The notes under the pieces were generated by a model. That model had not been told where the DNA came from and ran no database searches. It saw only the letters and a list, made by a program, of their open reading frames with translations. The position numbers and the translations under genes were made by a program. DNA of 64,000 nt, from the NCBI GenBank assembly GCA_036381715.1, contig DASVCH010000069.1, positions 2,208-66,207 on the forward strand. The letters are read 5' to 3'. This document shows, one piece after another, positions 4,985 through 63,273 of this stretch (the stretch's first letter is position 1; each line of letters opens with the position of its first letter). Origin of the DNA: Gammaproteobacteria bacterium (GTDB taxonomy: Bacteria; Pseudomonadota; Gammaproteobacteria; Natronospirales; JAJUFS01).

Positions 4985-6811
4985 TCAGTGTTTTCGTTTC
5001 TTCGGCAGATACAGATCCGTCAGCGTGCCTTCGAACGCTTCCGCGGCGAAACACACCGTTTCCGACAATGTCGGGTGCGGGTGAATCGTGAGGCCGATAT
5101 CGGCCGCGTCGCAGCCCATCTCGACCGCCAGCGCGACTTCCGCGATCAGCTCGCCCGCGTTCGGTCCGACCATCGCGCCGCCAAGCACGCGTTCGGTCTT
5201 CGGATCGAACAGCAGCTTGGTGAAACCTTCATCGCGGCCCAGCGACAGCGAGCGGCCGGATGCCGCCCACGGGAACTTGCCGACTTCGTACGCGACCCCG
5301 TCCTTCTTCGCCTGCTCTTCCGTCAGGCCGACCCACGCGACTTCCGGATCCGTGTAGGCGACGGAAGGAATCACGCGCGCATCGAAGAAACGCTTCTCGC
5401 CGGCGCACACTTCCGCCGCGACCTTGCCCTCGTGCGTCGCCTTGTGCGCGAGCATGGGCTGGCCGACGATGTCGCCGATCGCGAAGATGTGTTCGACATT
5501 CGTGCGCATCTGCTTGTCGACCTTGATGAAGCCGCGTTCGTCCGCGTCGATGCCCGCCTTGTCCGCGTCGATCCGCTTTCCGTTGGGTACGCGGCCAACT
5601 GCAACGAGCACGCGGTCGAACAACTGGTCGGAACCGGGCGCATTCTTCCCGTCGAACGACACCTTGATGCCGTTCTTCTGCGCCTTCATTTCCGTCACCT
5701 TCGTGCCGGTCATGATGTTCGCGTAGCGCGCCTTGATGCGTTTCTCCAGCGGTCGCACCAGGTCCTTGTCCGCGCCGGGCATCAATTGATCCGCGAGCTC
5801 GACGACGGTGACTTCCGAACCGAGCGCATCATAAACGCAAGCCATTTCGAGACCGATGATGCCGCCGCCGATCACGAGCAGTCTTTCCGGGACATCCTTC
5901 AGCTCCAGCGCGCCGGTGGAATCCATGACGCGCTCGTCGTCCGGCGCAAACGGCAGTTTCACCGGTTCGGAACCGGCCGCGATGATGCACTTCTCGAACC
6001 GGATGACCTGCCGGCTTCCTTCATTGTCGACTTCGAGGTGATGTGCACCGGCGAACTTTCCCGAACCGGTGACGACGTTCACCTTGCGCTGCTTCGCCAT
6101 GGTGGCAAGACCGCCGGTGAGCTTCTTCACCACGTCGCCTTTCCAGCCGACGAGCTTCTTCGCATCGATTCTCGGTTTGCCGAACTCGACGCCGAATTCC
6201 GACATGTGCGCGGCCTCGTCGATCACCTTGGCCGCGTGCAGCAAGGCCTTCGACGGAATGCAGCCGACATTCAGGCACACGCCGCCCAGCGAATCCCAGC
6301 GCTCGACCAGCGTCACTTTCAGGCCGAGATCCGCGGCGCGAAACGCCGCCGTGTAACCGCCCGGGCCGGCGCCCAGCACCAGTACCTCGGTTTCGAGATC
6401 GACCTTGCCCTGGTAATCATCGGCTTTCGGAGCAGAAACTTCCTTCTCCCCCTCACTCCGGCCCTCTCCCCGGGGGGGAGAGGGAGATTCTTCGCCAGCC
6501 CTTGCGGCGGTACTTGGCGCTTCGGCTTGCGGCTCTTCCTTCGACTTTCGACTTTCGACTTTCGACGCTTCCGTGGCTTCGACAATCGCGATCACGCTGC
6601 CTTCCGAAACCTTGTCGCCGACCTTGACCTTCATTTCCTTGATCGTGCCGGCCTGCGGCGCAGGAACGTCCATTGCCGCCTTGTCGGTTTCGAGCGTGAT
6701 CAGCGGCGTTTCCTTCTCGACCGCGTCACCCGCCTTCACGAGCACGTCGATGATTTCGACGTTCTCGAAGTCGCCGATGTCGGGAACCTTTATTTCGATT
6801 TCACTTGGCAT
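4985..6811 (-). CDS. lpdA: Dihydrolipoyl dehydrogenase (E3) with N-terminal lipoyl domain
   Basis: 608 aa. Lipoyl domain (LETDKAAMDVPAP), charged linker, then GAGPGGY and the redox disulfide GGVCLNVGCIPSKALL. Last gene of the aceE-aceF-lpd string. Confidence 0.95.
   Translation of the reverse strand: MPSEIEIKVPDIGDFENVEIIDVLVKAGDAVEKETPLITLETDKAAMDVPAPQAGTIKEMKVKVGDKVSEGSVIAIVEATEASKVESRKSKEEPQAEAPSTAARAGEESPSPPRGEGRSEGEKEVSAPKADDYQGKVDLETEVLVLGAGPGGYTAAFRAADLGLKVTLVERWDSLGGVCLNVGCIPSKALLHAAKVIDEAAHMSEFGVEFGKPRIDAKKLVGWKGDVVKKLTGGLATMAKQRKVNVVTGSGKFAGAHHLEVDNEGSRQVIRFEKCIIAAGSEPVKLPFAPDDERVMDSTGALELKDVPERLLVIGGGIIGLEMACVYDALGSEVTVVELADQLMPGADKDLVRPLEKRIKARYANIMTGTKVTEMKAQKNGIKVSFDGKNAPGSDQLFDRVLVAVGRVPNGKRIDADKAGIDADERGFIKVDKQMRTNVEHIFAIGDIVGQPMLAHKATHEGKVAAEVCAGEKRFFDARVIPSVAYTDPEVAWVGLTEEQAKKDGVAYEVGKFPWAASGRSLSLGRDEGFTKLLFDPKTERVLGGAMVGPNAGELIAEVALAVEMGCDAADIGLTIHPHPTLSETVCFAAEAFEGTLTDLYLPKKRKH
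6445..6486. repeat. GC palindrome element (CCCTCTCCCC-GGG-GGGGAGAGGG) inside the lpd linker coding region
   Basis: Perfect 10-bp arms at 6462..6484. Translated in frame as SPPRGEGRSEGE. Confidence 0.8.
6539..6566. repeat. Four heptamer units (CTTCGAC, TTTCGAC x3) inside the lpd linker
   Basis: Counted by hand. Translated on the minus strand as SKVESRKSK. Confidence 0.8.
6570..6811. repeat. Lipoyl-domain coding repeat, copy in lpd
   Basis: Direct repeat of 8010..8251 at an offset of 1440 nt. Positions 6731..6793 versus 8171..8233 show 63 nt with a single mismatch. Confidence 0.85.
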
Positions 6812-6854
6812 TCACGGAACTCCGAAGATTCATTCTTCGTCGAATAAAATGATG

Positions 6855-6911
6855 GTGAGAGGTAAGAAGTAAGAGGATGAAAGCCGCGTATTCCATCCTC
6901 TCACTTCTCAC
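6855..6911. repeat. Heptamer-based imperfect inverted repeat in the aceF-lpd spacer
   Basis: GTGAGAG GTAAGAA GTAAGAG GATG, then a 14-nt loop, then CATCCTCTCACTTCTCAC. It overlaps the aceF stop. Confidence 0.75.
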
Positions 6912-8251
6912 AACACGAGGTTACGCCGTTCTGCAAGCACTTCGGCCAGGAACGTCGTGAAGCGCGCCGCAGCGGCGCCGTCAATGATGCGGTGATCGTA
7001 GGACAGCGACAGCGGCAGCATGAGGCGCGGCATGAACTTCTTGCCGTTCCACACCGGTTTCATCTGCGCCTTCGAGACGCCAAGGATCGCGACTTCGGGC
7101 GCGTTCACGATCGGCGTGAAATACGTGCCGCCGATGGAGCCGAGCGAGGAAATCGAAAAGCACCCGCCCTGCATGTCGGCCGCTTTCAGCTTGCCGTTGC
7201 GCGCCTTCTCGGACAGATCGCCCAGCTCCTTGCCGATCTCGAAGATGTCCTTTTTGTCGGCGTCGCGCACCACCGGCACGACCAGGCCGCCCGGCGTATC
7301 GACGGCGAAGCCGATGTGAAAATATTTCTTGAATACCTGCTGCTCGCCATCCGGCGACAGCGAGCTGTTGAAGTTCGGGAACTCCTGCAGCGCCTGCACG
7401 CAGGCCTTGATGACGAAGGTCAGCGGCGTGAGCTTCGCGCCGACTTTCTCGGCGTCGGACTTCAGCGCCTTGCGCATGGATTCGAGTTCGGTGATGTCGG
7501 CCTCGTCGTGCTGGGTGACGTGCGGCACGTTCACCCACGCGGCGTGCAGGCGCGGGCCGGAAATCTTCTTGATGCGCGGCAGCGGTTTCGTTTCGATTTC
7601 GCCGAACTTGCCGAAATCGACTTCGTGGACCTGCGGCAGGCCGGCGCCTCCTGGCGCGCCTCCCGAACGCATGACGGATTTCACGAAACCCTTCACGTCC
7701 TCGTGCGTGATGCGCCCCTTGATGCCGGAACCGTTCACCTTGCCGAGATCGACGCCGAGCTCGCGCGCGAACTTGCGCACCGAGGGCGAGGCGTGCGCCT
7801 TCGAGAAGGATTCCTCGTTCACTGCAGGCAGGTCGGCAGAAGGACGAACGGCTTCCTGCGTGCCTTCCCCCTCACCCCGGCCCTCTCCCCGGAGGGGAGA
7901 GGGAGGCGCTTCGTTGACCTCTGCAACAGGTTTCGGCGCTTCGACTTGCGGTTCTTCTTCCTTCTCCCTTATCCCTTCTTCCTGTTCCTTGTCCTTCGAC
8001 TTCGACTCGTCCCCGGCTTCCAGCACCGCGATCACCGTCCCTTCGGACACCTTGTCGCCGTTACCGACCTTCATCTCCACGATCTTCCCGGCCGCCGGCG
8101 ACGGCACGTCCATCGCGGCCTTGTCGGTTTCCAGCGTGATGAGCGGCGTTTCCTTTTCGACAGTGTCGCCCGCCTTCACGAGCACGTCGATGATCTCGAC
8201 GTTCTCGAAGTCGCCGATGTCGGGAACCTTTATCTCAAACTTGTCAGCCAT
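6908..8251 (-). CDS. aceF: Dihydrolipoamide acetyltransferase (pyruvate dehydrogenase E2)
   Basis: ORF 6908..8269 trimmed to the ATG at 8251 (MADKFEIKVPDIG, GGAG RBS). One lipoyl domain, an E3-binding domain (ASPSVRKFARELGVDL) and a catalytic SYDHRIIDGA motif. Confidence 0.95.
   Translation of the reverse strand: MADKFEIKVPDIGDFENVEIIDVLVKAGDTVEKETPLITLETDKAAMDVPSPAAGKIVEMKVGNGDKVSEGTVIAVLEAGDESKSKDKEQEEGIREKEEEPQVEAPKPVAEVNEAPPSPLRGEGRGEGEGTQEAVRPSADLPAVNEESFSKAHASPSVRKFARELGVDLGKVNGSGIKGRITHEDVKGFVKSVMRSGGAPGGAGLPQVHEVDFGKFGEIETKPLPRIKKISGPRLHAAWVNVPHVTQHDEADITELESMRKALKSDAEKVGAKLTPLTFVIKACVQALQEFPNFNSSLSPDGEQQVFKKYFHIGFAVDTPGGLVVPVVRDADKKDIFEIGKELGDLSEKARNGKLKAADMQGGCFSISSLGSIGGTYFTPIVNAPEVAILGVSKAQMKPVWNGKKFMPRLMLPLSLSYDHRIIDGAAAARFTTFLAEVLAERRNLVL
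7865..7905. repeat. Second copy of the GC palindrome element (CCCTCTCCCC-GGA-GGGGAGAGGG) inside the aceF linker coding region
   Basis: Perfect 10-bp arms at 7881..7903. Translated in frame as SPLRGEGRGEGEG. Confidence 0.8.
7954..8007. repeat. Degenerate pyrimidine heptamer run (CTTCTTC CTTCTCC CTTATCC CTTCTTC CTGTTCC ...TTCGAC TTCGAC) inside the aceF linker
   Basis: Read directly. Translated on the minus strand as ESKSKDKEQEEGIREKEEE. Confidence 0.7.
8010..8251. repeat. Lipoyl-domain coding repeat, copy in aceF
   Basis: See the copy at 6570..6811. The protein N-termini are nearly identical (E/IKVPDIGDFENVEIIDVLVKAGD.VEKETPLITLETDKAAMDVP). Confidence 0.85.
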
Positions 8252-8296: not shown

Positions 8297-8369
8297 GTGA
8301 GAGGTGAGAAGTAAGAGGTGAGAGGACTAAAGCGGCCTGCCCTCTCACTGCTCACCTCTTACCTCTCAC
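8297..8369. repeat. Heptamer-based inverted repeat in the aceE-aceF spacer
   Basis: GTGAGAG GTGAGAA GTAAGAG GTGAGAG, then a 16-nt loop, then CCTCTCA CTGCTCA CCTCTTA CCTCTCA. Confidence 0.8.
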
Positions 8370-12740: not shown

Positions 12741-13157
12741 TCAGTGCGCCATGGTTTCAAGCTCGGCGCGCGTTACGCGTCCCGGCGTGATCCGGACATG
12801 CACGACATCGCCATCGCCGGTGGTGAACATGGTTTCCGCCTGCCGCTCCCAGGACATCATCCAGCGATGCGTGCGGACATGCGCGAGCGCATCTTCCGGA
12901 CCGAAATCCATATCGACGAAAACCTCGGTTCCGTCCTCGCCGGCATGCGTGGAATGGAATACCAGCTTCAATTTCCGCTCGCCAGGCAGGCCTTGTATGA
13001 CCGAGCCGTCACTGGCGGGTTCAAGTGCGATACGCGGGTTTGAAAGTTCCTCGCCGTTCACGTGAACGACAACATCCAGCAGGATCAGCTCGTCATCCGC
13101 GCCGGACGCGAGAGGCGTCAGGACCAGCGCCGCAATCATCAGCAAGCCTTTCGACAT
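12741..13157 (-). CDS. Small exported hypothetical protein
   Basis: ORF 12741..13199. The ATG at 13157 has a GGAGA 7 nt upstream. Signal peptide MSKGLLMIAALVLTPLASG. Lies directly downstream of the ToxR-like regulator gene. Confidence 0.55.
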   Translation of the reverse strand: MSKGLLMIAALVLTPLASGADDELILLDVVVHVNGEELSNPRIALEPASDGSVIQGLPGERKLKLVFHSTHAGEDGTEVFVDMDFGPEDALAHVRTHRWMMSWERQAETMFTTGDGDVVHVRITPGRVTRAELETMAH

Positions 13158-14096: not shown

Positions 14097-15128
14097 ATGG
14101 AAACGCTCACCCTCACCCGCCCCGACGACTGGCACCTTCACCTGCGCGACGGCGCGCAGATGGCCGCCGTGCTGCCATTCACCGCGAAGCAGTTCGCGCG
14201 CGCGCTGGTGATGCCGAACCTGCGCCCGCCCGTGACGACAACCGAACAGGCGCTGGAATATCGCGGGCGAATTCTCGCGGCGCTGCCGGAAGGCGCGGCG
14301 TTCGATCCGCGGATGGCGCTGTATCTCACCGACAACACGCAACCGGAAGAAATCGAACGCGCGAAGGCATCCGGCGCCGTGCTCGCCGTGAAACTGTACC
14401 CGGCCGGCGCGACGACCAACTCGGACGCGGGCGTGACGGATATTGCGAACACGTACGCGACGCTGGAAAAAATGGCGGAGCTTGGCATGCCGCTTTGCGT
14501 GCACGGCGAGGTGACGCGGGAAGCCGTCGATGTCTTCGATCGCGAAGCGGTGTTCATCGACGAAGTGCTTGCGCCGCTGCACGCGCGCCTGCCGGAACTG
14601 AAGATCGTCTTCGAGCACATCACGACCGCAAGCGCGGCGGATTTCGTGCGCGACGCCGGCAGCAAGGTCGCGGCCACCATCACGCCGCAGCACCTGCTGC
14701 ACAATCGCAACGCGATCTTCCAGGGCGGCATACGGCCGCACTACTACTGCCTGCCGGTGCTGAAGACCGAACCGGACCGGGAAGCCTTGATCGCGGCCGC
14801 CACCGGCGGCAATCCGAAATTCTTTCTCGGCACCGACAGCGCGCCGCACGCGCGGCACGCGAAGGAAACCGGCTGCGGCTGCGCGGGCTGTTTCACGGCG
14901 CATGCAGCGCTGGAACTTTATGCCGAAGCCTTCGACACCGCGAACGCGCTCGACCGGCTCGAGGCGTTCGCCAGCCACTACGGCGCGGATTTCTACGGCC
15001 TGCCGCGCAACACGGGAACCGTGACCTTGCGCCGTGAAGCGTGGACGCCGCCCTCGCGCATGCCGTTTGCGGACGCCGAGATCGTGCCGTTCCGCGCGGA
15101 CGAAACCGTCGCCTGGCGCTGCTGCTGA
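14097..15128 (+). CDS. pyrC: Dihydroorotase (class II)
   Basis: 343 aa. The opening LTRPDDWHLHLRDG...VMPNLRPPV is typical of PyrC. Confidence 0.9.
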   Translation: METLTLTRPDDWHLHLRDGAQMAAVLPFTAKQFARALVMPNLRPPVTTTEQALEYRGRILAALPEGAAFDPRMALYLTDNTQPEEIERAKASGAVLAVKLYPAGATTNSDAGVTDIANTYATLEKMAELGMPLCVHGEVTREAVDVFDREAVFIDEVLAPLHARLPELKIVFEHITTASAADFVRDAGSKVAATITPQHLLHNRNAIFQGGIRPHYYCLPVLKTEPDREALIAAATGGNPKFFLGTDSAPHARHAKETGCGCAGCFTAHAALELYAEAFDTANALDRLEAFASHYGADFYGLPRNTGTVTLRREAWTPPSRMPFADAEIVPFRADETVAWRCC

Positions 15129-17315: not shown

Positions 17316-17322
17316 AGTGAAG

Positions 17323-51240: not shown

Positions 51241-51275
51241 CTTGCGCCTCGCATGCGCCTGTTGTGAAAGAGAAG

Positions 51276-51375: not shown

Positions 51376-51975
51376 GCTCTTTGTTTGCTCCGACAAAAGT
51401 CGCTCCAGGTATCGTGCGACCACATCGACTTCCAGGTTCACCTTGTCGCCTGGCGAGCGCGAACCGAGGTTCGTCACCGCAAGCGTATGCGGCACGATGT
51501 TCACGTCGAAACGCGAACCATCGACGCCGTTGACAGTGAGACTGATGCCGTCGATGCAGATGGAGCCCTTGCGCGCGATGTATTTCGCGAGCGCTTGCGG
51601 CGCTTCGAACAGGAAACGCCAGGAGCGCGCGTCTTCCTTTCTTTCGATGAGCATTCCGACGCCGTCGACGTGACCGCTGACCAGGTGCCCGCCAAGGCGT
51701 TCGCCTGCAGCGAGCGCGGGTTCGAGATTCACGCGGTCGCCGGCTTTCAACGAACCGAGCGTCGTGTGCTCCAGCGTCTCGCGCGAGACGTCCGCGACAA
51801 GATGCGTTTTCGCCGGTTCGATCGCCGTCAGGCACACGCCATTCACCGCGATGCTTTCGCCGGTCGCGAAATCCTTTCCTGAGAGATCGCCAAGCGCGAC
51901 ACGAAGACGCATGTCCCCGTTGCGCGTTTCCACGTTTTCAACCGATCCCGTAGCCTGGATGATTCCGGTGAACAT
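51361..51975 (-). CDS. ribE: Riboflavin synthase
   Basis: 204 aa. Motifs MFTGIIQATG, GESIAVNGVCLT and GSICIDGISLTV. The last five codons and the stop lie in the AT-rich repeat module. Confidence 0.9.
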   Translation of the reverse strand: MFTGIIQATGSVENVETRNGDMRLRVALGDLSGKDFATGESIAVNGVCLTAIEPAKTHLVADVSRETLEHTTLGSLKAGDRVNLEPALAAGERLGGHLVSGHVDGVGMLIERKEDARSWRFLFEAPQALAKYIARKGSICIDGISLTVNGVDGSRFDVNIVPHTLAVTNLGSRSPGDKVNLEVDVVARYLERLLSEQTKSNGQD

Positions 51976-51986
51976 GTCTTCTCTCC

Positions 51987-52065
51987 AAGGGAGAAGAAAG
52001 AAGGGAGAAGAAAGAAGAGTTCCTTCGCCGACGTCCCCTTCTACCTTCTATCTTCTACCTTTCTT
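51987..52065. repeat. Purine (GGGAGAA GAAAGAA x2) and pyrimidine (CTTCTAC CTTCTAT CTTCTAC CTTTCTT) heptamer arms in the ribD-ribE spacer
   Basis: Read directly. Arms are only partly complementary. The pyrimidine arm overlaps the ribD 3' end. Confidence 0.75.
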
Positions 52066-53153: not shown

Positions 53154-53160
53154 GGTGTCA

Positions 53161-53233
53161 GGTAGTAAGGAAGAAGTGAGAAGGAGGAAGATGCGATGTC
53201 TTCTACCTTCTCACTTCTTTCTTCTCACTTCTT
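53161..53233. repeat. Heptamer-based hairpin in the nrdR-ribD spacer
   Basis: GTGAGAAGGAGGAAGA, then TGCGATG, then TCTTCTACCTTCTCAC: a 16-bp stem with one mismatch. Further heptamers sit on both sides. It contains the nrdR stop. Confidence 0.8.
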
Positions 53234-53734
53234 GTCATCCGGCAGCAACGAAATCTGATGTTTCTTCAACGCCTCTTCCAGCGGCCGTTTCTCCAGCCGC
53301 TCGATTTCCTCGCGGAAGGCGTTCACGTCCTCGAAGCTGCGATAGACGGATGCGAAGCGCACGTAGGCGACCTGGTCGAGTTCCTGCAATTCCTGCATCA
53401 CCCATTCGCCGATCTGCCGCGATTTCACTTCGCGTTCGCCGGCCGCGCGCAGCTTGTGCGTGATGCGAGCAATCGCCGCTTCCACGGCCTCCGTTCCGAC
53501 CGGCCGCTTTTCGAGCGCGCGCATCAGCCCCGAACGCAGCTTGTTTTCATCGAACGGCTGGCGCACGCCGCCGGACTTGATGACGCGCGGCATGACCAGT
53601 TCCGCGCTCTCGAAGGTGGTGAACCGTTCGCTGCAGCGGATGCACTCGCGGCGGCGGCGAACCTGGCTGCCCTCGCTCGCCAAACGCGAGTCGATGACCT
53701 TGGTCTCCTCGTGTTCGCAGAACGGGCAGTGCAT
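53225..53734 (-). CDS. nrdR: Transcriptional repressor NrdR
   Basis: 169 aa. The opening [17 protein letters not shown]...[16 protein letters not shown] is a zinc ribbon, followed by an ATP cone. Confidence 0.95.
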
Positions 53735-53741
53735 GCTTGCC

Positions 53742-55016
53742 TCAGATCGAGAACGTCATCGTTTCCGGGTACACGGGAAACCGCCTGCAAAGCTCAAGGA
53801 CCTTTTCGCGCGTCGCGTCGATCACGGATTCGTTGCCGATATCGTCCAGCACGTCCGCGATCCAGCCGGCGACTTCCGTGATTTCCCTTTCCTTGAAACC
53901 GCGCGTGGTCGCGGCCGGCGTGCCGATGCGAAGACCGGAGGTCACGAACGGCGACTGCGGATCGTTCGGCACGGTGTTCTTGTTCACGGTGATGTACGCG
54001 CGGCCGAGCGCGGCGTCGGCGTCCTTGCCCGTCATGCCCTTGTCGATCAGGTCGAGCAGGAAAAGATGATTGTCCGTGCCGCCGCAGACGATGCGGTAGC
54101 CGCGATCCTGCAACGCTTTCGCCATGGCGCGCGCATTCGCGACGACCTGCTTCTGGTATTCCCTGAACTCCGGCTGCAACGCTTCGGCGAAGGCGACGGC
54201 CTTCGCCGCGATGACGTGCATCAGCGGACCGCCCTGCGTGCCCGGAAACACCAGCGACTGGAATTTCTTTTCGATGTCCGGGTTCGACTTCGCGAGAATC
54301 ACGCCGCCGCGCGGGCCGCGCAGCGTCTTGTGCGTGGTGGAGGTGACGGCGTGCGCGTGCGGCACCGGGTTCGGGTACTCGCCCGCCGCGACCAGACCGG
54401 CAACGTGCGCCATGTCCACGACGAGGTAGGCATCGACATCATCCGCGATCGCGCGGAACTTCGCCCAGTCCATGATGCGCGAATACGCCGAGAAACCGGC
54501 GACGATGACTTTCGGCCTGTGTTCATTGGCCAGCTGCGCGATGCGGTCGTAATCCAGTTCGCCCGTTTCCGGATCAATGCCGTATTGGACGGCGTTGAAC
54601 AGTTTCCCGGAGAAATTCGGTTTCGCCCCATGCGTGAGGTGACCGCCGTGATCCAGGCTCATGCCGAGCAGGGTGTCGCCGGGCTTCATCAGCGCCATGA
54701 ACACCGCCGCGTTCGCCTGCGAGCCGGAGTGCGGCTGCACGTTGGCGTAGTCCGCGCCAAAGAGCTGCTTCACGCGCTCGATGGCGAGGTTTTCCGCCAC
54801 GTCCACGAACTCGCAGCCGCCGTAATAGCGCTTGCCGGGATAGCCTTCCGCGTACTTGTTGGTCAGCACCGAGCCTTGCGCGGCCAGCACTCTCGGGCTC
54901 GCGTAATTCTCGGAGGCGATCAGCTCGATGTGATCTTCCTGCCGGCGGCGCTCGGCCTGCATGGCGTCGAACAGGGCGTCGTCGAATCCCTGGATGGTCA
55001 TGTCCTGGCGGTACAT
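53742..55016 (-). CDS. glyA: Serine hydroxymethyltransferase
   Basis: ORF 53742..55136 trimmed to the ATG at 55016 ([47 protein letters not shown]). Contains the PLP motif [14 protein letters not shown]. Confidence 0.95.
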
Positions 55017-55214
55017 CTGGAGGCTCTCCTCGTCGGTTCCGGCCCGCCCCTGGTCAGGGTCCGGAAATGCCCCGGGACGCGCCCGGGAATGCGGGTGAAG
55101 AAGCGTCGCATTGTACCCGAATGCCCCGGGCGGCACAGGCCGCGCGCAATGCCGGCCGCGGTTTTCCGGGGGTATCCGCCGATGGCAAGCGGGGGGTCCG
55201 GCTGTTATTTCCTG

Positions 55215-55733
55215 ATGAAATCATGGCAGTGCGGGTGGCCGAAGGTGGCGCTGAAGGATATCGAGACGATCAAGCATTCGGTGGAACTGAAGGAGTTCCA
55301 CAAGTTCCACGTCTGGATCTGGCGCCTGCAATACCTGTTCATGGCGCTGGTCGTCGTCACCGCGATACTCACTGTCGCCGGACTGTTCGGCGACGGCTGG
55401 ATGAGCCGGACGCAGATCGTCGACGATGACGCCGCCGTCGTTTACCAGCGCTTTGCGCGTTACGGCAACGACACCGTGCTGGAAACCCGCCTGTCCGGCA
55501 ACAATGCCAGTGTCGAGGTGCCGCTCGAGTATTTCGAGCGCTTCAGGCTCGACAGCGTGGTTCCGGAACCGCGCGAACAGCGCGTGCGGGGAAACCGGAT
55601 CGTGTTCGAATTCAGCACGGGCGAGGCCATGACGGCGCGCTTCCACCTGGTACCGCGGCGGTCCGGCGCCTCGGAAACCACGATCGTCGTCGGGGGCGCG
55701 TCATTCCCCGTCGCCCAGTTCACCTGGCCCTGA
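55215..55733 (+). CDS. Hypothetical single-pass membrane protein
   Basis: ATG at 55215 in the frame of ORF 53454..55733. One TM helix ([18 protein letters not shown]). Strong third-position GC. The stop is 2 nt before the DUF421 gene start. The start codon is uncertain. Confidence 0.5.
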
Positions 55734-55735
55734 TC

Positions 55736-56197
55736 ATGGATCCCGTCTTCCGTGCGCTCGCCGTCTATTTCTTCCTGCTGCTGGTTTTCCGCATCATCGG
55801 CAAGCGCAGCCTTTCGCAGATCACCTCGTTCGATTTCCTGCTGTTGCTGATCGTCGGCGAAGCGACGCAGCAGGCGTTGCTGGGACAGGACTATTCCATC
55901 ACCAACGCGCTGCTGGTGATCATGGTGCTGGTCGGCGTCGACTACCTGCTGGCAATGCTGAAGGAACGTTCCCGCGCGGTCGAACGGATCCTGGAAGGCG
56001 CGCCGTTGATCGTGGTCGCGAACGGCAAGGTGCTGGAAACCCGCATCAAGCGCGCCGGCCTCGACGAGGACGACGTGCTCAAGGCGGCAAGGCTAAAGCA
56101 CGGCCTGGAACGCATGGAGCAGATCAAGTACGCCATCCAGGAACGCGACGGGAATATTTCGATCATTCCCTATTCGACCGAGCGCGATCCGGCCTAG
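55736..56197 (+). CDS. DUF421 (YetF-like) membrane protein
   Basis: 153 aa. Contains IIGKRSLSQITSFDFLLLLIVGEA and a C-terminal soluble half. Confidence 0.75.
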   Translation: MDPVFRALAVYFFLLLVFRIIGKRSLSQITSFDFLLLLIVGEATQQALLGQDYSITNALLVIMVLVGVDYLLAMLKERSRAVERILEGAPLIVVANGKVLETRIKRAGLDEDDVLKAARLKHGLERMEQIKYAIQERDGNISIIPYSTERDPA

Positions 56198-57150
56198 CCG
56201 GACAGCGCCGCGGTGACGGCACTCCACGCCGCGCCAAGGTTAGGCCGGCTGTAACCGCCGCCGCCCAGCGCCAGCAGGCGTCCGCCGGCATGCTTTTCTG
56301 CGAGCATGACGAGGCGTTCGGCGGCGAAGCCGTGGTCGTCCGCCGAAAGGCCCAGTGCGGTGAGCGGATCGCCGGCCAGTGAATCGGCGCCGCACTGGAA
56401 AATGACGAACTCCGGTTCCGCCGCGTCCACGAACGCCTCCGCCGCCTTCCATGCCTGGCGGAAATCGCTGCTGCCCGCGCCGGCCGGCAGCGGCAGGTTG
56501 AGCTTGGTTCCGGCCGCAGCGCCCTTGCCGGTTTCATCCGCATGGCCGGTTCCGGGATACAGCGTGCGCCCGTCCTGGTGAATGTCGGCAATGCAAATAT
56601 CCGGATCGTCCTCGTAGGCGTAGAACACGCCGTCGCCGTGATGCGCGTCGATGTCCACGTACGCGATGCGGCGAACGCCATGCCGCTGCCTGAGCATCTC
56701 GATGGCCAGGCCGATGTCGCTGAACACGCAGAAGCCCGCCGCATGATCGCGCGCCGCGTGATGCAGGCCGCCGATCGGCACGAAGGCGCGCGCAAGACGG
56801 CGCTCCATGACCGCTTCCGCCGCCGCGAGCGTCGCGCCGGCAACCGCCAGCGCCGCTTCGAAAATGTGCGCCTCGGCCGGCGTGTCGCCCATGTCCAGGT
56901 AACCGCCTTCGCGCGCGCAACGGTCGCGCACGAACCCGACGTAATACGCGTCATGGAAAAGCAGCAGATCCGCTTCGCGCGCCGGCGCGGCGTCGAGAAT
57001 CAGCACCTGCCGGTCGAGTTCGCGCTCGCGCAGCGCGCGCAGGAATGCATCCTGGCGGTCCTGTCCGAAAGGATGACCGCCGCTGAAACCGTAGTCCGCC
57101 GTGCCGGCACCGGCATAAACCGCGACGGGACGAATTGGGTCAATGGCCAT
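56194..57150 (-). CDS. Histone-deacetylase-family protein (AcuC/acetylpolyamine amidohydrolase-like)
   Basis: 318 aa. Motifs GGLHHAARDHAAGFCVF, DIDAHHGDG and GGGGY. Confidence 0.85.
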   Translation of the reverse strand: MAIDPIRPVAVYAGAGTADYGFSGGHPFGQDRQDAFLRALRERELDRQVLILDAAPAREADLLLFHDAYYVGFVRDRCAREGGYLDMGDTPAEAHIFEAALAVAGATLAAAEAVMERRLARAFVPIGGLHHAARDHAAGFCVFSDIGLAIEMLRQRHGVRRIAYVDIDAHHGDGVFYAYEDDPDICIADIHQDGRTLYPGTGHADETGKGAAAGTKLNLPLPAGAGSSDFRQAWKAAEAFVDAAEPEFVIFQCGADSLAGDPLTALGLSADDHGFAAERLVMLAEKHAGGRLLALGGGGYSRPNLGAAWSAVTAALSG

Positions 57151-57171
57151 GAGTAAAGACTAAGGGGAAAG

Positions 57172-57248
57172 GTCGAAAGTCTAAAGTCGAAGGTCGAAAG
57201 TGAAGAGCGCCGGGTTCGCCTTTCGACCTTCGACCTTCGACTTTCGAC
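57172..57248. repeat. 29-bp-stem heptamer hairpin in the divergent HDAC-family / rimB-like promoter region
   Basis: GTCGAAAGTCTAAAGTCGAAGGTCGAAAG, a 19-nt loop, then CTTTCGACCTTCGACCTTCGACTTTCGAC. Two mismatches by hand alignment. Confidence 0.85.
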
Positions 57249-57263
57249 CCGGTTCTTCCTGCT

Positions 57264-57776
57264 ATGCTTGCCGAAATCCGTCAGACGGAGCGGCCGTTGG
57301 ACAAGGCAGACACAAGAATGACCGTAGGCTGGCGCGAGTGGGTGAGCCTGCCGGAGCTGGGCATTCCGCGGATCAAGGCGAAGGTCGATTCCGGTGCGCG
57401 CACCTCCGCGCTGCACGCCTTCGACATCAAGGAATACGAACGCGACGGACAGCGGCGCGTGCTGTTCGGCATGCACCCGGTGCAGCAGAACACCGAAATC
57501 TCGGTGTTCTGCGACGCCGAGGTCGTCGACCAGCGCTGGGTGATGGATTCCGGCGGCCACCGCGAGGAACGCCTGGTCATCCGCACGCCGCTTCGCATCG
57601 GCGCGGAGGAATGGCCGGTCGAGATCACGCTGACCGGACGCGACAGCATGCGGTTCAGGATGCTCATCGGCCGCACGGCGATGAACGGCCGCCTGCTGGT
57701 TTTACCTGACAGTTCCTTCCTCGTGACGCCGGACGATTCGCCGGATCCGGAAGCGGACAACCTGGAAGAAGACTGA
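57264..57776 (+). CDS. ATP-dependent zinc protease / retropepsin-like protein of rimK clusters (RimB-like)
   Basis: 170 aa. Contains [32 protein letters not shown]. An alternative start exists at 57318. Confidence 0.7.
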
Positions 57777-57848
57777 GTAAGGGAGAAGGGAGAAGTCGGC
57801 GTATTTCCGCTTTTTTCTTCTACCTTCTTCCTTTTACCTTCTACCTTT
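57777..57848. repeat. Purine (GTAAGGG AGAAGGG AGAAG) and pyrimidine (CTTCTAC CTTCTTC CTTTTAC CTTCTAC CTTT) arms in the rimB-like / rimK spacer
   Basis: Starts 1 nt after the stop at 57776. A T-run lies between the arms. Confidence 0.75.
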
Positions 57849-57879
57849 GACAAGCAATCGCCGGACGCTGCGAGCACGA

Positions 57880-58788
57880 ATGAAAATCGCCATCCTTTCA
57901 AGGAACCCAAGGCTCTACTCCACCCGCCGGCTCGTGGAGGCCATCGAAGCGCACGGTCACACCCCGCGCGTGATCGATCCGCTGCGCTGCTACATGAACA
58001 TCGCCGCGCACAATCCCGAGATCCATTACAAGGGCGAAAAGCTCGAAGCCTTCGATGCCGTCATTCCGCGCATCGGCACGTCCGTCACCTTTTACGCGAC
58101 CTCGATCCTGCGCCAGTTCGAGATGATGGGCGTGTTTCCGCTGAACGAATCGGTCGCGATCAGCCGCTCCAAGGACAAGCTGCGTTCGCTGCAATTGCTC
58201 TCGCGCAAGGGTGTCGGCATGCCGGCGACCGGCTTCGCGCATTCGCCCGACGACACGCAGGACCTTTTGAAGCTTGTCGGCGGCGCGCCGGTCGTTATCA
58301 AGCTGCTGGAAGGCACGCAGGGCGTCGGCGTGGTGCTTGCCGAAACGCGCAAGGCGGCGGAATCCGTCATCGACGCCTTCCGCGGCCTCAACGCGCATTT
58401 CCTGGTGCAGGAATTCATCAAGGAAGCCGGCGGCACGGACATCCGCTGCTTCGTCATCGGCGAGAAGGTCGTGGCAAGCATGAAGCGCACGGCGAAGGAA
58501 GGCGAGTTCCGTTCCAACCTGCACCGCGGCGGTTCGGCGGAAGTCATCCGCATCACGCCGGACGAGCGTCTCATGGCGGTGCGCGCGGCGAAGATCATGG
58601 GCCTGAACGTCGCCGGCGTGGACATCCTGCGCTCCGGCAAGGGCCCGCTCATCATGGAAGTGAATTCCTCGCCCGGACTCGAGGGCATCGAAACCGCGAC
58701 CGGCAAGGACATCGCCGGACAGATCGTCACGTTCATCGAAAAGCACTACAAGCCGGGCAAGACGCGCACCAAGGGAAGCCGGGGCTGA
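57880..58788 (+). CDS. rimK: Ribosomal protein S6 L-glutamate ligase (ATP-grasp)
   Basis: ATG at 57880 inside ORF 57847..58788. Motifs [31 protein letters not shown] and [12 protein letters not shown]. Confidence 0.9.
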
Positions 58789-58794
58789 CGGCCG

Positions 58795-59853
58795 ATGATC
58801 ACTCGCCACCGCAACAAGACGCTGATCATCAACGGTCACGACATTCCGCCGGGTTCGCGCGCGAAACTGCAACTGCCGGTTTCGACGCTCTACACCAACT
58901 CGCCGGTCGAGGTGCCGCTGCGCGTCATCAACGGCCGCCAGCCGGGACCGACCCTGTTCATTTCCGCCGCCGTGCACGGCGACGAACTCAACGGCATCGA
59001 AATCATCCGCCGTCTCATGGCGACGCCCGCGGTGAAACGCCTCAAGGGCGCGCTGCTCGCCGCCCCCATGGTCAACGTGCTCGGCGTCATGCACAAGTCG
59101 CGCTACCTGCCCGACCGCCGCGATCTCAACCGCAGCTTTCCGGGTTCGCCGGAAGGCTCGATGGCCTCGCGGCTGGCGCATCTTTTCTGCGAGGAAGTGC
59201 TGACGCACGCGCAATACGGCATCGACCTGCATACCGCGGCGATTCACCGCGACAACTTTCCGCAGATCCGCGCCGACCTCGACGACGAGGAAACGCTTGC
59301 GCTTGCGAAAGCCTTCGGCGCGCCCGTGATGCTGAACGCGGGCACGCCGGAAGGCTCGCTGCGCGGCGCGGCCGTCGCGAAAAAAGTGAAAGTGATGGTG
59401 TACGAGGCGGGCGAAGCGCTGCGCTACGACGAAATCGCGATCAAGGTCGGCGTCAACGGCATTCTCAACGTCATGCGCGAACTCGGCATGCTGCCCGTCT
59501 CGCGCCGCCGGAAGAAACGGCACGAACCCATCATCGCGCGTTCCTCCACCTGGATTCGCGCCAACACTTCCGGCCTGCTGCGCGTTCAGGCCGCGCTCGG
59601 CAGCGTCGTGAAACGCGGCCAGGTGCTGGGCAACATCACGGGCCCGTTCCACGACGACGACCACGAAGTGAAAGCGCCGTTCGGCGGCATCATCATCGGC
59701 CGCAGCAACATCCCGCTCATCCACGAAGGCGAGGCGATGTTCCACATTGCGCGCTTCGAAAAGCCGGGCGAACTCGACAAGCGCCTGGAAAACCTCAAAT
59801 CCACCTTCGCGGACGACGATCCGCTCACCACCTCGGAACCGCCGATCGTCTGA
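58795..59853 (+). CDS. Succinylglutamate desuccinylase/aspartoacylase-family (M14-like) zinc hydrolase
   Basis: 352 aa. Motifs LFISAAVHGDELNG, NRSFPG and GIDLHT. Confidence 0.8.
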   Translation: MITRHRNKTLIINGHDIPPGSRAKLQLPVSTLYTNSPVEVPLRVINGRQPGPTLFISAAVHGDELNGIEIIRRLMATPAVKRLKGALLAAPMVNVLGVMHKSRYLPDRRDLNRSFPGSPEGSMASRLAHLFCEEVLTHAQYGIDLHTAAIHRDNFPQIRADLDDEETLALAKAFGAPVMLNAGTPEGSLRGAAVAKKVKVMVYEAGEALRYDEIAIKVGVNGILNVMRELGMLPVSRRRKKRHEPIIARSSTWIRANTSGLLRVQAALGSVVKRGQVLGNITGPFHDDDHEVKAPFGGIIIGRSNIPLIHEGEAMFHIARFEKPGELDKRLENLKSTFADDDPLTTSEPPIV

Positions 59854-61098
59854 TCACCGTTCCCTGAACGGCGAACGTTCCGGCGCTTCCTCGTACGGAA
59901 GATAGGGAAACAGCTGGCGCACGAACCAGTTCACCGCCGGCAGCCGGTGCCGTGCCCACAGCCAGGTATCGACAGGTTTCGCGCCCAGGTTCGCTTTCGG
60001 TTCCGTCGCCGTACGGCCGAAAGAAATCCTGTGGCAACTCAACGCCAGCGCGTCTTCAACCACCTGCTGCAGCAGGCGGAGATAGACGGGCAGCTCGGCA
60101 TTCACGCCGTAATCCATGCCGACGTAATACGCCAGCGCCGAGCCGTCGTTTTCACGAATCGTGGAAATGAATCCGACAAGCCTTTGTTGGTCGCGCAGCA
60201 CCGATATCCGCAGCTGCTCCGGGAAGCATTCGGCAAGCGCGGCAAAATATCCGCGCGGCAGGGCCGCCGTGCGCACGGCCGCACGCTGCTCGACCTGTGA
60301 GTAAAGCGCATGGATATGGGCATCGTACGGACGAACGTCGTCCAGCGTCTCTACGACGAGGCCAGCCGCCTCGATCTGGCGGCGAATGCGCTTCTGCCTG
60401 CCGCGATATTTCGTGTTCAGCAGCGCAAGGTAGTCGTCAAAGCTCGCGCATTCGGGGGGCAGCGTGAGCACCATGTCGGGTTCCGTCCGCACGCGCCGGT
60501 AACTGTAGTTTTGCAGCGCCGCGGCGGCGTCGACCCCGGCACCCTTGAAATCCTTCACCAGCAGAAAGTCCGATTCACCGGACAGTTTCTCGCCGCGCCG
60601 GATCCGGTACAGCGCCTCGGCAATGCCCGCCCAGGCGACGGAATGATCCGCGCCGCTGGCAAGACCGACACCATGCAGTCCGCTTGAAACCAGGTTGCCG
60701 CACACCAGCAGGCGTTGACCGAAACCCCTCAGCGCATGGCGTTGCGCCTGCCGCAATGCCATTCGGAAGCGATCAGCATCCTCATCCCCGGCCGCCTTGT
60801 CCAGCAGGCTTTCGGCGCGCCAGTCGAAAAGCTGTACGGCGACGCAGGCTACCGGCTCGTTGCCGGAATACACGAGCGCATAGCGGTGGGCCACGCCGTC
60901 CATACCTAGCGACTCGAGCAGGGAAAGATAGCGGCGGTCGAGAAAAAGCGACTGGCCCCTTGCAATGCCGTCCCAGCGGCCCGCATCAAGAAATCCGATG
61001 CTGTCGGCGAGCGCGAATTGCAGGCCCGTCGGCGTGTGCCGGATGCGATGCCGCTGCCAGGCGCCGGCTGCGCCATTCCCCGCGTGTTCGTCCTTCAT
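59854..61098 (-). CDS. GNAT/FemAB-like acyltransferase-fold protein (COG3146/DUF482-like, tentative)
   Basis: 414 aa. General layout (WDG...LFLDRRYLSLLESLG...FYLRLLQQVVEDA...FGRTATEPK) resembles FemAB-like N-acyltransferases. Assigned from memory only. Confidence 0.55.
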   Translation of the reverse strand: MKDEHAGNGAAGAWQRHRIRHTPTGLQFALADSIGFLDAGRWDGIARGQSLFLDRRYLSLLESLGMDGVAHRYALVYSGNEPVACVAVQLFDWRAESLLDKAAGDEDADRFRMALRQAQRHALRGFGQRLLVCGNLVSSGLHGVGLASGADHSVAWAGIAEALYRIRRGEKLSGESDFLLVKDFKGAGVDAAAALQNYSYRRVRTEPDMVLTLPPECASFDDYLALLNTKYRGRQKRIRRQIEAAGLVVETLDDVRPYDAHIHALYSQVEQRAAVRTAALPRGYFAALAECFPEQLRISVLRDQQRLVGFISTIRENDGSALAYYVGMDYGVNAELPVYLRLLQQVVEDALALSCHRISFGRTATEPKANLGAKPVDTWLWARHRLPAVNWFVRQLFPYLPYEEAPERSPFRER

Positions 61099-61226
61099 CG
61101 CCTCGCTCCCTTATCTTGCTTTTTCGCAGCATGCCGCATCATCCGTGACGAAGAAAGCGACGGCGTGTCGTCGCACTGCTCCAATCGTTATAATGCGCGT
61201 CCCTTCTCAACCTCCGGCAGTTCCCC

Positions 61227-62897
<1,671 letters not shown>

Positions 62898-62901: not shown

Positions 62902-62922
62902 GTCGAAGGTCGAAAGTGAAAA
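62902..62922. repeat. Three purine heptamers (GTCGAAG GTCGAAA GTGAAAA) leading into the ettA terminator
   Basis: Starts 5 nt after the ettA stop. Confidence 0.8.
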
Positions 62923-62947
62923 AGCCGCGCTTCGCGCGGCTTTTTTT
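62917..62947 (+). terminator. Intrinsic terminator of ettA
   Basis: AAAAAA-GCCGCGC-TTC-GCGCGGC-TTTTTTT, 20 nt after the ettA stop and preceded by three heptamer units. Confidence 0.7.
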
Positions 62948-63036
62948 CCTTTCGCAACAAAAGCGAAGAGCAATGGACGGGACTTCGCAGGATTTTTCAG
63001 GATTTGCAGGACGTCCGAATGTGCGTGCAGGAGCGC
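62948..63036. repeat. Degenerate mosaic module (CCTTTCGCAACAAAAGCGAAGAGCAATGGACGGGACTTCGCAGGATTTTTCAGGATTTGCAGGA...)
   Basis: Same order of submotifs as 17387..17469 and 41632..41711, but more diverged. Confidence 0.6.
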
Positions 63037-63119
63037 CCTCCCGGGCGCGATTATCAGCAATCGGCCGCGGAGCGGCCTCCTACGAGATTTCGCGTGTTTT
63101 GAAGTGCGATGCGCGACCG
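63037..63119. repeat. REP-like element, copy 3 (core hairpin at 63063..63077)
   Basis: See 33179..33263. Confidence 0.8.
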
Positions 63120-63273
63120 CTTTCGCCTTTCGCCTTTCGCCTTCTCCCTTCTCCCTTCTCCCTTCTCCCTTCTCCCTTCTCCCTTCGACCTTCGACCTTC
63201 TCCCTTCGACCTTCGACCTTCGACCTTCGACCTTCGACCTTCGACCTTCGACCTTCGACCTTCGACCTTCGAC
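63120..63273. repeat. 22-unit mosaic pyrimidine heptamer array: CTTTCGC x3, CTTCTCC x6, CTTCGAC x2, CTTCTCC x1, CTTCGAC x10
   Basis: Counted unit by unit: 154 nt with no phase break. Ends 22 nt upstream of the MASE1 gene ATG. Confidence 0.95.

Follow-up and report, generated by a model that had tools for sequence, protein, structure and literature searches.

Tandem 7-nt repeat arrays and hairpins at gene boundaries of an uncultured gammaproteobacterium, and their relation to the heptanucleotide repeats of other bacteria

The stretch analysed here, called the window, comprises 64,000 nt of contig DASVCH010000069.1 (assembly GCA_036381715.1) from an uncultured gammaproteobacterium, and the elements under study are arrays of tandem 7-nt units (heptamers) that lie mostly between its genes. 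The window has a GC content of 64% and carries 56 genes at a coding density of 90% by codon-likelihood gene calls; a second gene caller, based on a GC model, gives the same stop codon for 55 of the 56, and the intergenic share is 9.7%. The gene content is ordinary housekeeping (aceE-aceF-lpd, nrdR-ribD-ribE-ribBA-ribH, glyA, rimK), together with genes for an acyl-CoA dehydrogenase, a GGDEF-EAL protein, a TonB receptor and an ABC-F protein. No tRNA or tmRNA genes were found in the window, and a search over its whole length at the gathering thresholds of Rfam gave zero matches to catalogued RNA families.

Period-7 arrays were recovered at all the loci named in the first-pass annotation of this DNA, both by Tandem Repeats Finder (TRF) and by direct reading, and the strict 7-nt periodicity that it described was borne out. 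The units belong to two families: family A, made of GTCGAAR and GGCGAAA (complements YTTCGAC and TTTCGCC), and family B, made of GTGAGAG, GTAAGAA, GGGAGAA and GGTAGAA (complements CTCTCAC, CTTCTCC and CTTCTAC). Perfect runs of at least 21 nt occur in the window at period 7 only (n = 10; 457 bp, 94% of which are intergenic), with none at periods 4-6 and 8-12 and none in 100 third-order Markov simulations of the window. Within intergenic sequence, the identity at lags of 7, 14 and 21 nt is 0.34, 0.34 and 0.32, versus a baseline of about 0.26. The longest arrays, at 41712-41847 and 63120-63273, hold 19.4 and about 22 copies, respectively.

The expected enrichment outside genes is also found: by a relaxed detector, period-7 tracts occupy 11.8% of intergenic and 0.22% of coding bases, and are thus about 55 times denser outside genes. 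This detector places tracts in 10 of the 29 gaps of at least 40 nt, a number that rises to 13 upon adding the degenerate hairpins at 6855, 51987 and 53161, so that the statement that the repeats fill most gaps was too strong. A strict period-7 detector misses the degenerate family B hairpins, which rest on TRF, direct reading and folding. Arrays occur in all three convergent gaps and in one of the nine divergent gaps, and they start 0-10 nt from stop codons or overlap them, as first described; several extend over the final codons of open reading frames (ORFs). Two arrays, at 6538-6566 in lpd and at 7954-8006 in aceF, lie inside the coding sequence of linkers. It is clear that ORFs tolerate the arrays hardly anywhere except in flexible linkers and in the last few codons. 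The individual loci are the following, with folding energies and z-scores relative to shuffled sequence where these were obtained:

6538-6566, minus strand: AGTCGAA x4, family A, inside the lpd coding sequence at linker residues 82-92 (TRF).
6855-6911, minus strand: family B hairpin of GTGAGAG/GTAAGAA units, from the aceF stop to the lpd start; 21-bp stem, -31.5 kcal/mol, z -7.1.
7954-8006, minus strand: CTTCTCC/CTTCGAC-type tract inside the linker-coding region of aceF, residues 82-100 (TRF).
8297-8369, minus strand: family B hairpin in the aceE-aceF gap; -46.6 kcal/mol, z -7.1.
17303-17358, plus strand: family A purine arm of about 8 GTCGAAG/GTCGAAA units, starting in the last codons of an ACT-domain gene.
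17360-17386, no strand assigned: bidirectional intrinsic terminator core AAAAA-GGCCGGC-GAT-GCCGGC-TTTTTT (direct reading, folding).
17387-17402, plus strand: short pyrimidine arm (CTTTCGC CTTTTCGCC), paired with the last part of the purine arm (reading, folding).
17450-17508, minus strand: GC hairpin GGGCGGGC-TTT-GCCCGCC followed by CGCCTTT x6, which on the minus strand is GGCGAAA x5-6 directly after the glutaredoxin stop (TRF, reading).
22406-22436, plus strand: family A purine arm beginning 4 nt past the acyl-CoA dehydrogenase stop (TRF, reading).
22437-22467, no strand assigned: bidirectional terminator core AAAAAA-GCCGCGC-GTT-GCGCGGC-TTTTTTTT (reading, folding).
22468-22519, plus strand: family A pyrimidine arm of about 7 units (TRF, reading); the whole locus folds at -56.6 and -59.3 kcal/mol, one value per strand.
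25566-25639, plus strand: family A purine arm, GTCGAAA x2 and GGCGAAA x4, decaying to A-rich units toward the hairpin.
25640-25680, plus strand: terminator core GCCGCGC-TTC-GCGCGG-TTTT and a short pyrimidine arm (ACTTTCGACCTTCGACTTCG) (reading, folding).
33264-33311, minus strand: single arm of CTTTCGC x7, that is, GCGAAAG x7 from 3 nt past the TonB-receptor stop (TRF, reading).
41695-41847, minus strand: GC hairpin GCGGGC-TTC-GCCCGC, then CTTTCGC x13 and CTTTCGA x5 up to the stop codon of gene 41847-42875 on the minus strand (TRF, reading, folding).
50089-50146, minus strand: single arm of GGCGAAA x8 (minus strand) abutting the ribBA stop (TRF).
51987-52065, minus strand: family B inverted arrays of GGTAGAA/GGGAGAA/GAAAGAA in the ribD-ribE gap, the purine arm overlapping the ribD stop; -29.7 kcal/mol, z -0.1.
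53161-53233, minus strand: family B hairpin between nrdR and ribD, with the nrdR TGA stop in its first unit; -36.9 kcal/mol, z -5.7.
57155-57249, no strand assigned: family A hairpin (purine arm 57155-57201, pyrimidine arm 57222-57249) filling the gap between two divergent start codons; -49.7 and -51.7 kcal/mol for the two strands.
57777-57848, plus strand: family B hairpin with a T-run between a rimB-like gene and rimK (TRF, folding).
62902-62955, plus strand: two purine units, core AAAAA-GCCGCGC-TTC-GCGCGGC-TTTTTTT and one pyrimidine unit, 4 nt past the ABC-F stop.
63120-63273, plus strand: mixed 22-unit array of CTTTCGC x3, CTTCTCC x7 and CTTCGAC x12, ending 22 nt upstream of the start codon of the plus-strand gene at 63296 (TRF, reading).

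About ten of these loci are composed of a purine arm, a loop and a pyrimidine arm, with stems of 20-45 bp, which agrees with the long-stemmed architecture first proposed for them. As RNA, the two-armed loci fold at -25 to -59 kcal/mol, with z-scores of -2.4 to -8.4 for most, while the long single arm at 41705-41850 is unstructured (z -0.9). Intrinsic bidirectional terminators have a GC-rich stem of 5-12 bp, a short loop, a 3' T-run and a 5' A-run. A core of this kind, with an A-run, a GC stem of 6-7 bp, a 3-nt loop and a T-run, is present at 17360-17386, 22437-22467, 25633-25660 and 62916-62947; by direct reading these four cores have the features of a bidirectional intrinsic terminator, and the other six hairpins do not. 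The core GCCGCGC-NNN-GCGCGG(C), flanked by an A-run and a T-run, is common to 22443-22459, 25640-25655 and 62924-62940, as had been noticed, and the terminator cassettes at the four loci themselves form a recurring repeat (family D11), with copies 65-89% identical over 46 nt; 22421-22466 and 62902-62947 are 89% identical over this length. The terminator role assigned to the family would therefore apply to these four loci and fails to cover the whole, because a T-run is found in only 4 of about 10 hairpins, five hairpins are intra-operon and one lies between divergent start codons.

The two unit families are partitioned by context. All five intra-operon hairpins (aceE-aceF, aceF-lpd, nrdR-ribD, ribD-ribE and rimB-rimK) are of family B, while family A occupies terminator, convergent, divergent and single-arm sites, with one of eight family A sites in a co-directional, operon-like gap. 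The families also differ in how they can be read. Stop triplets are present in the family B purine arms and, because 7 equals 1 modulo 3, they interrupt all three sense frames in three of the five family B hairpins. No stop interrupts a family A array in any of the six reading frames. As a consequence, spurious ORFs extend across these arrays, the flexible linkers of lpd and aceF contain in-frame family A and CTTCTCC-type tracts, and most of the last 15 residues encoded by the convergent GGDEF-EAL gene (22480-22524) come from an array arm. Here the pyrimidine arm 22483-22519 encodes most of the tail ending in ...EGKSKIENRKSKVES and the stop, and the array has in effect rewritten the C-terminus of the protein, downstream of the EAL domain, whose end is at residue 825 of 852.

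Other repeat modules stand next to some of the arrays. A REP-like module of about 85 nt (ATCGGCCGCGGAGCGGCCTCCTACGAGATTTCGCG...), with the hairpin GGCCGC-GGA-GCGGCC and CCTCCTACGAG, is present at 33180-33263, 41549-41631 and 63036-63119; the three copies are 69-84% identical and each is directly followed by CTTTCGC units. In the relative L125 (about 1445-1490), a REP doublet (GTAGGAGCGCCTTCAGGCGCGAT and then its inverted copy) lies in the convergent gap between the glutaredoxin and ACT-domain genes. A second repeat family in the window is built on CAGGATT at a spacing of about 9-10 nt, and forms inverted arrays, (A)CAGGATT followed by AATCCTG(T), between ribE and ribBA (51281-51371). A CAGGATT module (CACAAAAGCGAAAGCAATGGACAGGATTAACAGGATTT) is found beside three heptamer loci (17415-17445, 41655-41690 and 62965-63013), and in the relative L126 CAGGATT-type arrays (12747-12835 and 14161-14255) take the place of the heptamer hairpins that the window has in its aceE-aceF and aceF-lpd gaps. 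The CAGGATT motif count in the window is 20, versus a simulation mean of 7.6.

REP and REPIN elements often occur as inverted doublets and are tied to the RAYT transposase, whereas CRISPR arrays have repeats of 23-47 nt with unique spacers of similar length. The hairpins of the window resemble REP elements and bidirectional terminators in being foldable extragenic palindromes at gene 3' ends and between cistrons. REP is, however, a dispersed imperfect palindrome of 20-40 nt, while the window has tandem 7-mers of several unit types, which rules out a REP/REPIN identity, and the stems of 20-45 bp are far longer than those of terminators. Contiguous 7-nt units without spacers likewise rule out CRISPR, and the distinction from REP, ERIC, BOX and CRISPR that had been drawn for these tandem contiguous 7-mers holds. 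It would still be conceivable, though we regard it as highly improbable, that the arrays are parts of a mobile, non-autonomous element similar to a REPIN or a miniature inverted-repeat transposable element, inserting at gene ends with cassette and arrays. The REP-like module, always directly before CTTTCGC units in its three copies, the two cassettes of 89% identity and the CAGGATT module at three array loci would fit such an element. Nonetheless, the modules are missing from most arrays, and the different units at the same site together with the unequal arm lengths point to expansion in situ and not to insertion. In addition, no terminal inverted repeats or target duplications were seen, and none of the 20 annotated window genes is a transposase or RAYT gene.

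Contigs of a second strain (GCA_964629845.1, an independent assembly) cover 51152-61280 and 46728-51206 of the window at 99.5-99.8% identity. These contigs include the array at 50089 and the four hairpin loci that lie from 51987 to 57848, which rules out that the arrays are an assembly artefact. Over these approximately 14.5 kb only three indels separate the strains, one of a single 7-nt unit, another of four units (28 nt) and the third of one T within a T-run, as expected for the slippage-prone tracts suggested in the first-pass annotation. The second strain is without exactly one unit (57779-57785) and one T (57811) at the rimB-rimK hairpin, and has 4 units at the ribBA stop versus 8 in the window. 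Contingency loci carry their repeat in a promoter or reading frame, where unit number switches expression; in the arrays studied here the unit number varies, yet most arrays lie 3' of genes; only those at 57222-57249 and 63120-63273 are directly upstream of start codons.

The relatives used for comparison were syntenic contigs with 68-90% RibE identity or at least 90% AceE identity. A heptamer hairpin is found in the nrdR-ribD gap of the window, L002 and L003, with units that differ and arms that match in each; over the three sequences, 7 of the 28 predicted pairs have changed on both sides and are still paired. The same gap holds a plain GC hairpin in L122 and short spacers in L123 and L124. 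In the aceE-aceF gap, the family B hairpins of the window and L125 are homologous and share their loop, while L126 has an inverted array of the different, CAGGATT-type repeat (ACAGGATTNN) and L127 a 21-nt spacer. At the ribBA stop, a shared TGCGATTGA leads into (GGCGAAA)8 in the window and into GGGATAC x2 and GGGAGAC x3 in L121, and in L122 and L123 the ribBA stop is followed by plain hairpins. The ribBA-ribH gap of L121 (1772-2005; 90% RibE identity) also contains a complementary arm (GTCGTCTCCCGTCTTACGTCTCCCG) about 150 nt downstream of the heptamers; if paired, the two arms would enclose most of this gap. From these comparisons it can be seen that the position and the hairpin can persist while the unit sequence and the copy number turn over, and at least two hairpins have persisted across lineages. 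The glutaredoxin/ACT terminator of L126 (AGTCGAAAGCCGGGC...GCCCGGCTTTTTGCTTTTAC) carries single copies of the units found in the two-sided arrays of the window, and at least one array plausibly grew from terminator-flanking sequence. Next to the ribBA array, the block CTACAATGGCG(C/G)CCC...AAATCCC...GACTTAGG upstream of ribH is conserved in all relatives (window 50024-50088; L003, L122, L123 and L124), and a TACAAT hexamer resembling a -10 element within it suggests that ribH may have its own promoter or leader downstream of the array.

The turnover of units bears on the possibility that a protein that binds DNA or RNA sequence-specifically, or else an RNA, reads the 7-nt units as part of a global regulatory network, with the arrays as its binding sites. 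Sites of this kind were proposed for the TAACTGA repeats of Beggiatoaceae (PMC4679880) and for the heptamers of Geobacter (PMC2700814), deletion of heptamers alters the activity of the recO promoter in Nostoc, and the arrays at 57222-57249 and 63120-63273 are suitably placed directly upstream of start codons. We nonetheless consider this very unlikely: the units are unlike at an orthologous site (GGCGAAA versus GGGATAC/GGGAGAC), several unit types are mixed within one array (for example at 63120-63273), the copy number differs two-fold between strains, about 100 units occur elsewhere among the matches listed in the cross-phylum scan described below, and most arrays follow stop codons and are not at promoters.

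With respect to orientation, the window contains about ten array pairs in the order purine arm, loop, pyrimidine arm (R-loop-Y) and none in the reverse order. This had been taken to mean that the purine arm comes first in the direction of transcription, but the order is uninformative about transcription because an R-loop-Y palindrome reads R-loop-Y on both strands, and it shows no polarity relative to transcription. Two real asymmetries exist. One is that pairs are always R..Y and never Y..R. The other is an orientation bias relative to the ORFs: for the single arrays of the window, the 5' end of the purine-rich, G-rich strand is nearer to an ORF in 10 of 11 cases, with a median distance of 7 nt versus 151 nt. 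This G-rich 5' end abuts the nearest ORF whether the boundary is a stop or a start.

A location rule of the same type is known. Rehm et al. 2015 (PMC4692102) described arrays of GGGAATC in Xanthomonas and of GGGGA(C/T)T in Nostoc, so the earlier statement that no family with these properties had been described does not hold. The Xanthomonas genome designated Xcc has 186 arrays, of which 70 belong to convergent inverted pairs, and the intergenic share is 89-93%; many of the inverted pairs are capable of forming stem-loops, and arrays typically have about 4 units and up to 26. An ORF lies about 28 nt away on the 5' side of the array and about 160 nt away on the other, whatever the orientation of the ORF, such that arrays are at or over stop codons on the coding strand and upstream of starts on the non-coding strand. 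The arrays are transcribed; between Xcc and Xac, 83% keep their position while their length varies. These authors read them as G-quadruplex elements and observed G-quadruplex formation in vitro. The arrays of the window share with them the 7-nt tandem structure, the intergenic bias, the position rule, the convergent pairs and the length variation. They differ in having units without G-tracts, two unit families partitioned by context and four terminator-centred loci, and in their host, an uncultured gammaproteobacterium of 64% GC. The window arrays are thus members of the heptanucleotide intergenic simple sequence repeat (SSR) class, with which they agree in every class-level property and disagree in the G-tracts alone. 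They do not belong to the GGGAATC or GGGGAYT sequence families, because their units have no quadruplex-capable G-tracts.

Further heptamers of this kind have been reported. A 2007 survey, cited as ref. 33 in PMC4692102, is reported there to have found heptamers over-represented among SSRs of 5-11 nt in free-living bacteria with large genomes, and an origin by polymerase slippage has been proposed. The window and the cross-phylum loci considered below show the same period-7 excess. This survey and the reports on the STRR heptamers of Calothrix PCC 7601 are surveys that are not known to describe hairpin or terminator architecture or a polarity rule. Geobacter metallireducens (PMC2700814) has GGGACCG x4 in 49 copies and MTYCTGA x5 in strand-switching pairs. 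These elements are, as in the window, multicopy heptamers of 4-5 units, some in inverted pairs and without known function, but they have other units, some lie within genes, and they were annotated as putative regulatory RNAs or regulator-binding sites. The TAACTGA repeats of Beggiatoaceae, Cyanobacteria and Bacteroidetes (MacGregor 2015, PMC4679880) are likewise abundant intergenic 7-nt direct repeats that abut ORFs, patchy across phyla and of unknown function. They lie in sense orientation just upstream of start codons and are almost only direct repeats, whereas in the window most arrays follow stops, inverted pairs are common and the arrays upstream of starts are C-rich in the sense strand. 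In Nostoc, heptamers near recF and recO affect reporter expression. A literature search by dimer strings did not find the unit dimers of the window as repeats, and the non-quadruplex units GTCGAAR/GGCGAAA and GTGAGAG/GTAAGAA/GGGAGAA are new here.

The wider distribution was explored by scanning species-representative genomes for (GKCGAAR)4, which gave at least 115 loci in Gemmatimonadota, Cyanobacteria, Bacteroidota, Verrucomicrobiota, Acidobacteriota, Planctomycetota, Chloroflexota, Streptomyces and others. In total, about 270 loci outside the window, from viral contigs and from many phyla, entered the comparison, and period 7 dominates in them; ORF boundaries for the polarity counts were taken from our own gene calls, and the counts in the rest of this paragraph are those among the matches listed. 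The (GKCGAAR)4 loci contain 83 further perfect period-7 arrays, versus at most 6 for any other period from 2 to 15, with about 100 different heptamer units. The 5' end of the purine-rich strand is nearer to an ORF in 119 arrays versus 46 in the opposite orientation (52 versus 12 within 10 nt); by type of boundary, the 5' side has 51 stops and 20 starts, and the 3' side 9 and 8, respectively. It is the G>C skew that predicts the orientation (67 versus 12) and the A>T skew does not: where the two disagree, 9 of 11 cases follow G>C, and the G>C rule also holds for units unrelated to the query (27 versus 7). Neighbouring arrays of opposite orientation are in the order R..Y in 19 cases versus 2 (18 versus 2 as counted in other genomes). 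GKCGAAR as a specific family across phyla is ruled out by the roughly 100 other units at the same loci.

The polarity was replicated in viral contigs with four unit families (133 versus 78; 77 versus 32 within 30 nt). Composition-matched permutations in these contigs gave counts of 59 for GKCGAAR, 76 for GKCAGAR, 8 for GKGCAAR and 12 for GRAAGCK, and the most plausible view of the recurrence of GKCGAAR is that it reflects convergence inside a wider heptamer phenomenon. The conserved features are the period of 7, the G>C polarity relative to ORFs and the R..Y order of pairs. The unit sequence is not among them, as close relatives differ in it at one and the same position. The shared polarity, with the G-rich strand running away from the ORF and pairs ordered G-rich and then C-rich, is a property of the whole class. 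It is tempting, although at present doubtful, to regard 7-base arrays across phyla and in phage and viral contigs as one class of gene-boundary elements that is independent of sequence and defined by polarity.

These results can be set against the G-quadruplex explanation. GGG is absent from GTCGAAR, GGCGAAA, GTGAGAG and GTAAGAA, and the GGGAGAA tracts found here hold at most two G-runs; judged from this composition, the units of the window would be unable to form G-quadruplexes, and therefore the published rationale is not transferable to them. Although the published relatives are G-tract repeats that form quadruplexes in vitro (PMC4692102) and have the same polarity of the G-rich strand, the rules of the class also hold for units incapable of forming them, and that the window arrays act as quadruplexes is barely credible.

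Another explanation is that the arrays are directional transcription insulators. Rho prefers C-rich, G-poor and unstructured RNA, and its loading is usually quoted as needing roughly 60-80 nt. According to this explanation, RNA transcribed toward an ORF would be C-rich, G-poor and unstructured and would act as a Rho-utilization (rut)-like loading tract at which antisense or read-in transcription comes to an end; outbound transcripts would be G-rich and not Rho substrates. The orientation set by G>C and not by A>T (67 versus 12, 27 versus 7 and 9 of 11, among the matches listed), the validity of the rule at stops and starts alike, the composition of the pyrimidine strands in the window (2-4 C and 0-1 G per 7 nt) and the unstructured single arm are all in line with it. 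Many arrays, however, are 28-56 nt long, below the length quoted for Rho loading, the C-rich tract of arrays that abut starts falls in the 5' leader of the gene itself and would attenuate its expression, and nothing ties Rho to a 7-nt period. Both parts of this explanation, the stopping of inbound transcripts and the exemption of outbound ones, are considered quite unlikely.

The explanation that is preferred, and that we consider moderately probable, is that the arrays are heptanucleotide SSRs born by slippage, which extend hairpins and represent a bloom, specific to this lineage, of a class known from many bacteria. Arrays would be seeded by short sequences beside gene ends and hairpins, such as the single GTCGAAAG / GCTTTTAC flank of the glutaredoxin/ACT terminator of a relative, and would expand by replication slippage that favours 7-nt units, each arm independently. 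A G/A-rich array and its complement around a loop would allow the RNA, and extruded DNA, to zip into a stem of 20-45 bp in several registers, and complementary arms would be retained through selection for pairing or through template-switch copying. At four sites, the stem would lengthen a bidirectional intrinsic terminator, with each register then followed by U-rich UUUCG/CUUCG. The five intra-operon sites would be intercistronic stem-loops, probably for 3'-end protection of the REP type or as processing sites of the RNase III type, and the unstructured single arms are most likely by-products of expansion.

Several observations weigh against this explanation or limit its reach. The ribD-ribE locus (51980-52068) is exceptional in folding no better than shuffles, six of ten hairpins are without a T-run, and the divergent-start hairpin (57155-57249) is at a site where a terminator makes no sense. 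Termination and mRNA protection by the hairpins are roles that we infer from the sequence. Consensus promoter and terminator scans gave no enrichment over shuffles and flagged two of the four cores, and were not used as evidence; pairing between the A- and T-runs makes them overlook two evident cores. For the two longest arrays, the copy numbers come from a single assembly, as the contigs of the second strain cover neither. The compensatory changes in the nrdR-ribD hairpin do not prove function, because template-switch copying could keep the arms complementary and only three sequences are compared. Across phyla, a GC hairpin is next to the array in the 3' flank in 17 of 243 cases and in the 5' flank in 10 of 243, among the matches listed, which rules out a class-wide outward growth of arrays from terminator hairpins and makes the association with terminators local to the genome of the window and not a property of the class. 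There is also no sign of directional growth toward the ORF: the 21-nt flanks have an in-phase similarity of 0.418 (5') and 0.379 (3'), with p = 0.17, and the edges show no asymmetric decay. Finally, neither the polarity nor the preference for 7 follows from slippage alone.

A purely neutral origin, in which a bias toward 7-nt slippage fills unconstrained DNA and the hairpins and the terminator link have no selected role, is unlikely but deserves consideration. Neutrality would account for the fast turnover of units, and of their presence or absence, at orthologous sites, for the variation in copy number between strains, for arrays in flexible coding linkers and C-terminal tails where the frame tolerates them, for the about 100 units across phyla among the matches listed, and for the counts in viral contigs, where GKCGAAR (59) does not exceed a permuted unit (76). 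It predicts no strand rule, however, and one is seen (119 versus 46 and, for R..Y pairs, 19 versus 2, among the matches listed; 133 versus 78 in viral contigs). The hairpin between nrdR and ribD, kept in three lineages with compensatory changes, and the partition of unit families by context (five of five family B hairpins intra-operon, one of eight family A sites co-directional) also argue against it.

Some additional observations concern the genes. The gene calls leave large stretches seemingly free of genes (25039-25687, 27296-28006, 29179-29695 and 55137-55735), and at least one gene was missed, as the annotation of the second strain has an ORF of 194 residues matching 55149-55733. The ORF 25163-25564, which ends just before the array at 25566, has no Pfam match and its coding status is uncertain. 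The genes at 45035-46348 and 46381-47661 are tandem paralogues, with repeats 1346 nt apart and 72-78% identical; their counterparts in relatives are annotated as Ser/Thr protein kinases with a cNMP-binding domain. The large ORF 35583-39182 (about 1150-1200 residues) has internal repeats of 44-58 nt at 35922, 36057, 36873, 37014 and 37542, which probably encode a repeated protein domain and are unrelated to the heptamers. The N-terminal lipoyl domains of lpd and aceF (6561-6796 and 8001-8236) are 84% identical in DNA over 236 nt, which suggests that a recent duplication or gene conversion may have taken place between the two genes. A palindrome, CCCTCTCCCCGG(G/A)GGGGAGAGGG, lies within the linker-coding regions of lpd (6447-6538) and aceF (7866-7957), in a 92-nt repeat that is 78% identical between the genes, and encodes ...PSPPRGEGRSEGE... 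and ...PSPLRGEGRGEGEG...; it looks like a palindrome of extragenic type tolerated in a flexible linker.

Heptamers have been noticed repeatedly, in the STRR of Calothrix, the 2007 survey, Geobacter, Xanthomonas, Nostoc and Beggiatoaceae, and their origin and function have no accepted account. The window provides a dense and clean example with units incapable of forming quadruplexes, in which relatives and a second strain reveal both turnover and persistence. In practical terms, family A arrays create spurious ORFs and alter annotated C-termini, and such arrays can break or collapse short-read assemblies. The cross-phylum comparison separates what is conserved (period, polarity and R..Y order) from the unit sequence and narrows the possible mechanisms, and the validity of the rules of the class for units incapable of forming G-quadruplexes provides comparative material on which mechanisms can be tested. 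If the arrays are indeed a class defined by polarity, the G-quadruplex explanation given for Xanthomonas and Nostoc would not be general, and a common mechanism at the edges of ORFs, linked to transcription or replication, would select or generate them, for which the loading of Rho on C-rich inbound RNA, the formation of R-loops by G-rich outbound RNA and polar slippage are candidates.

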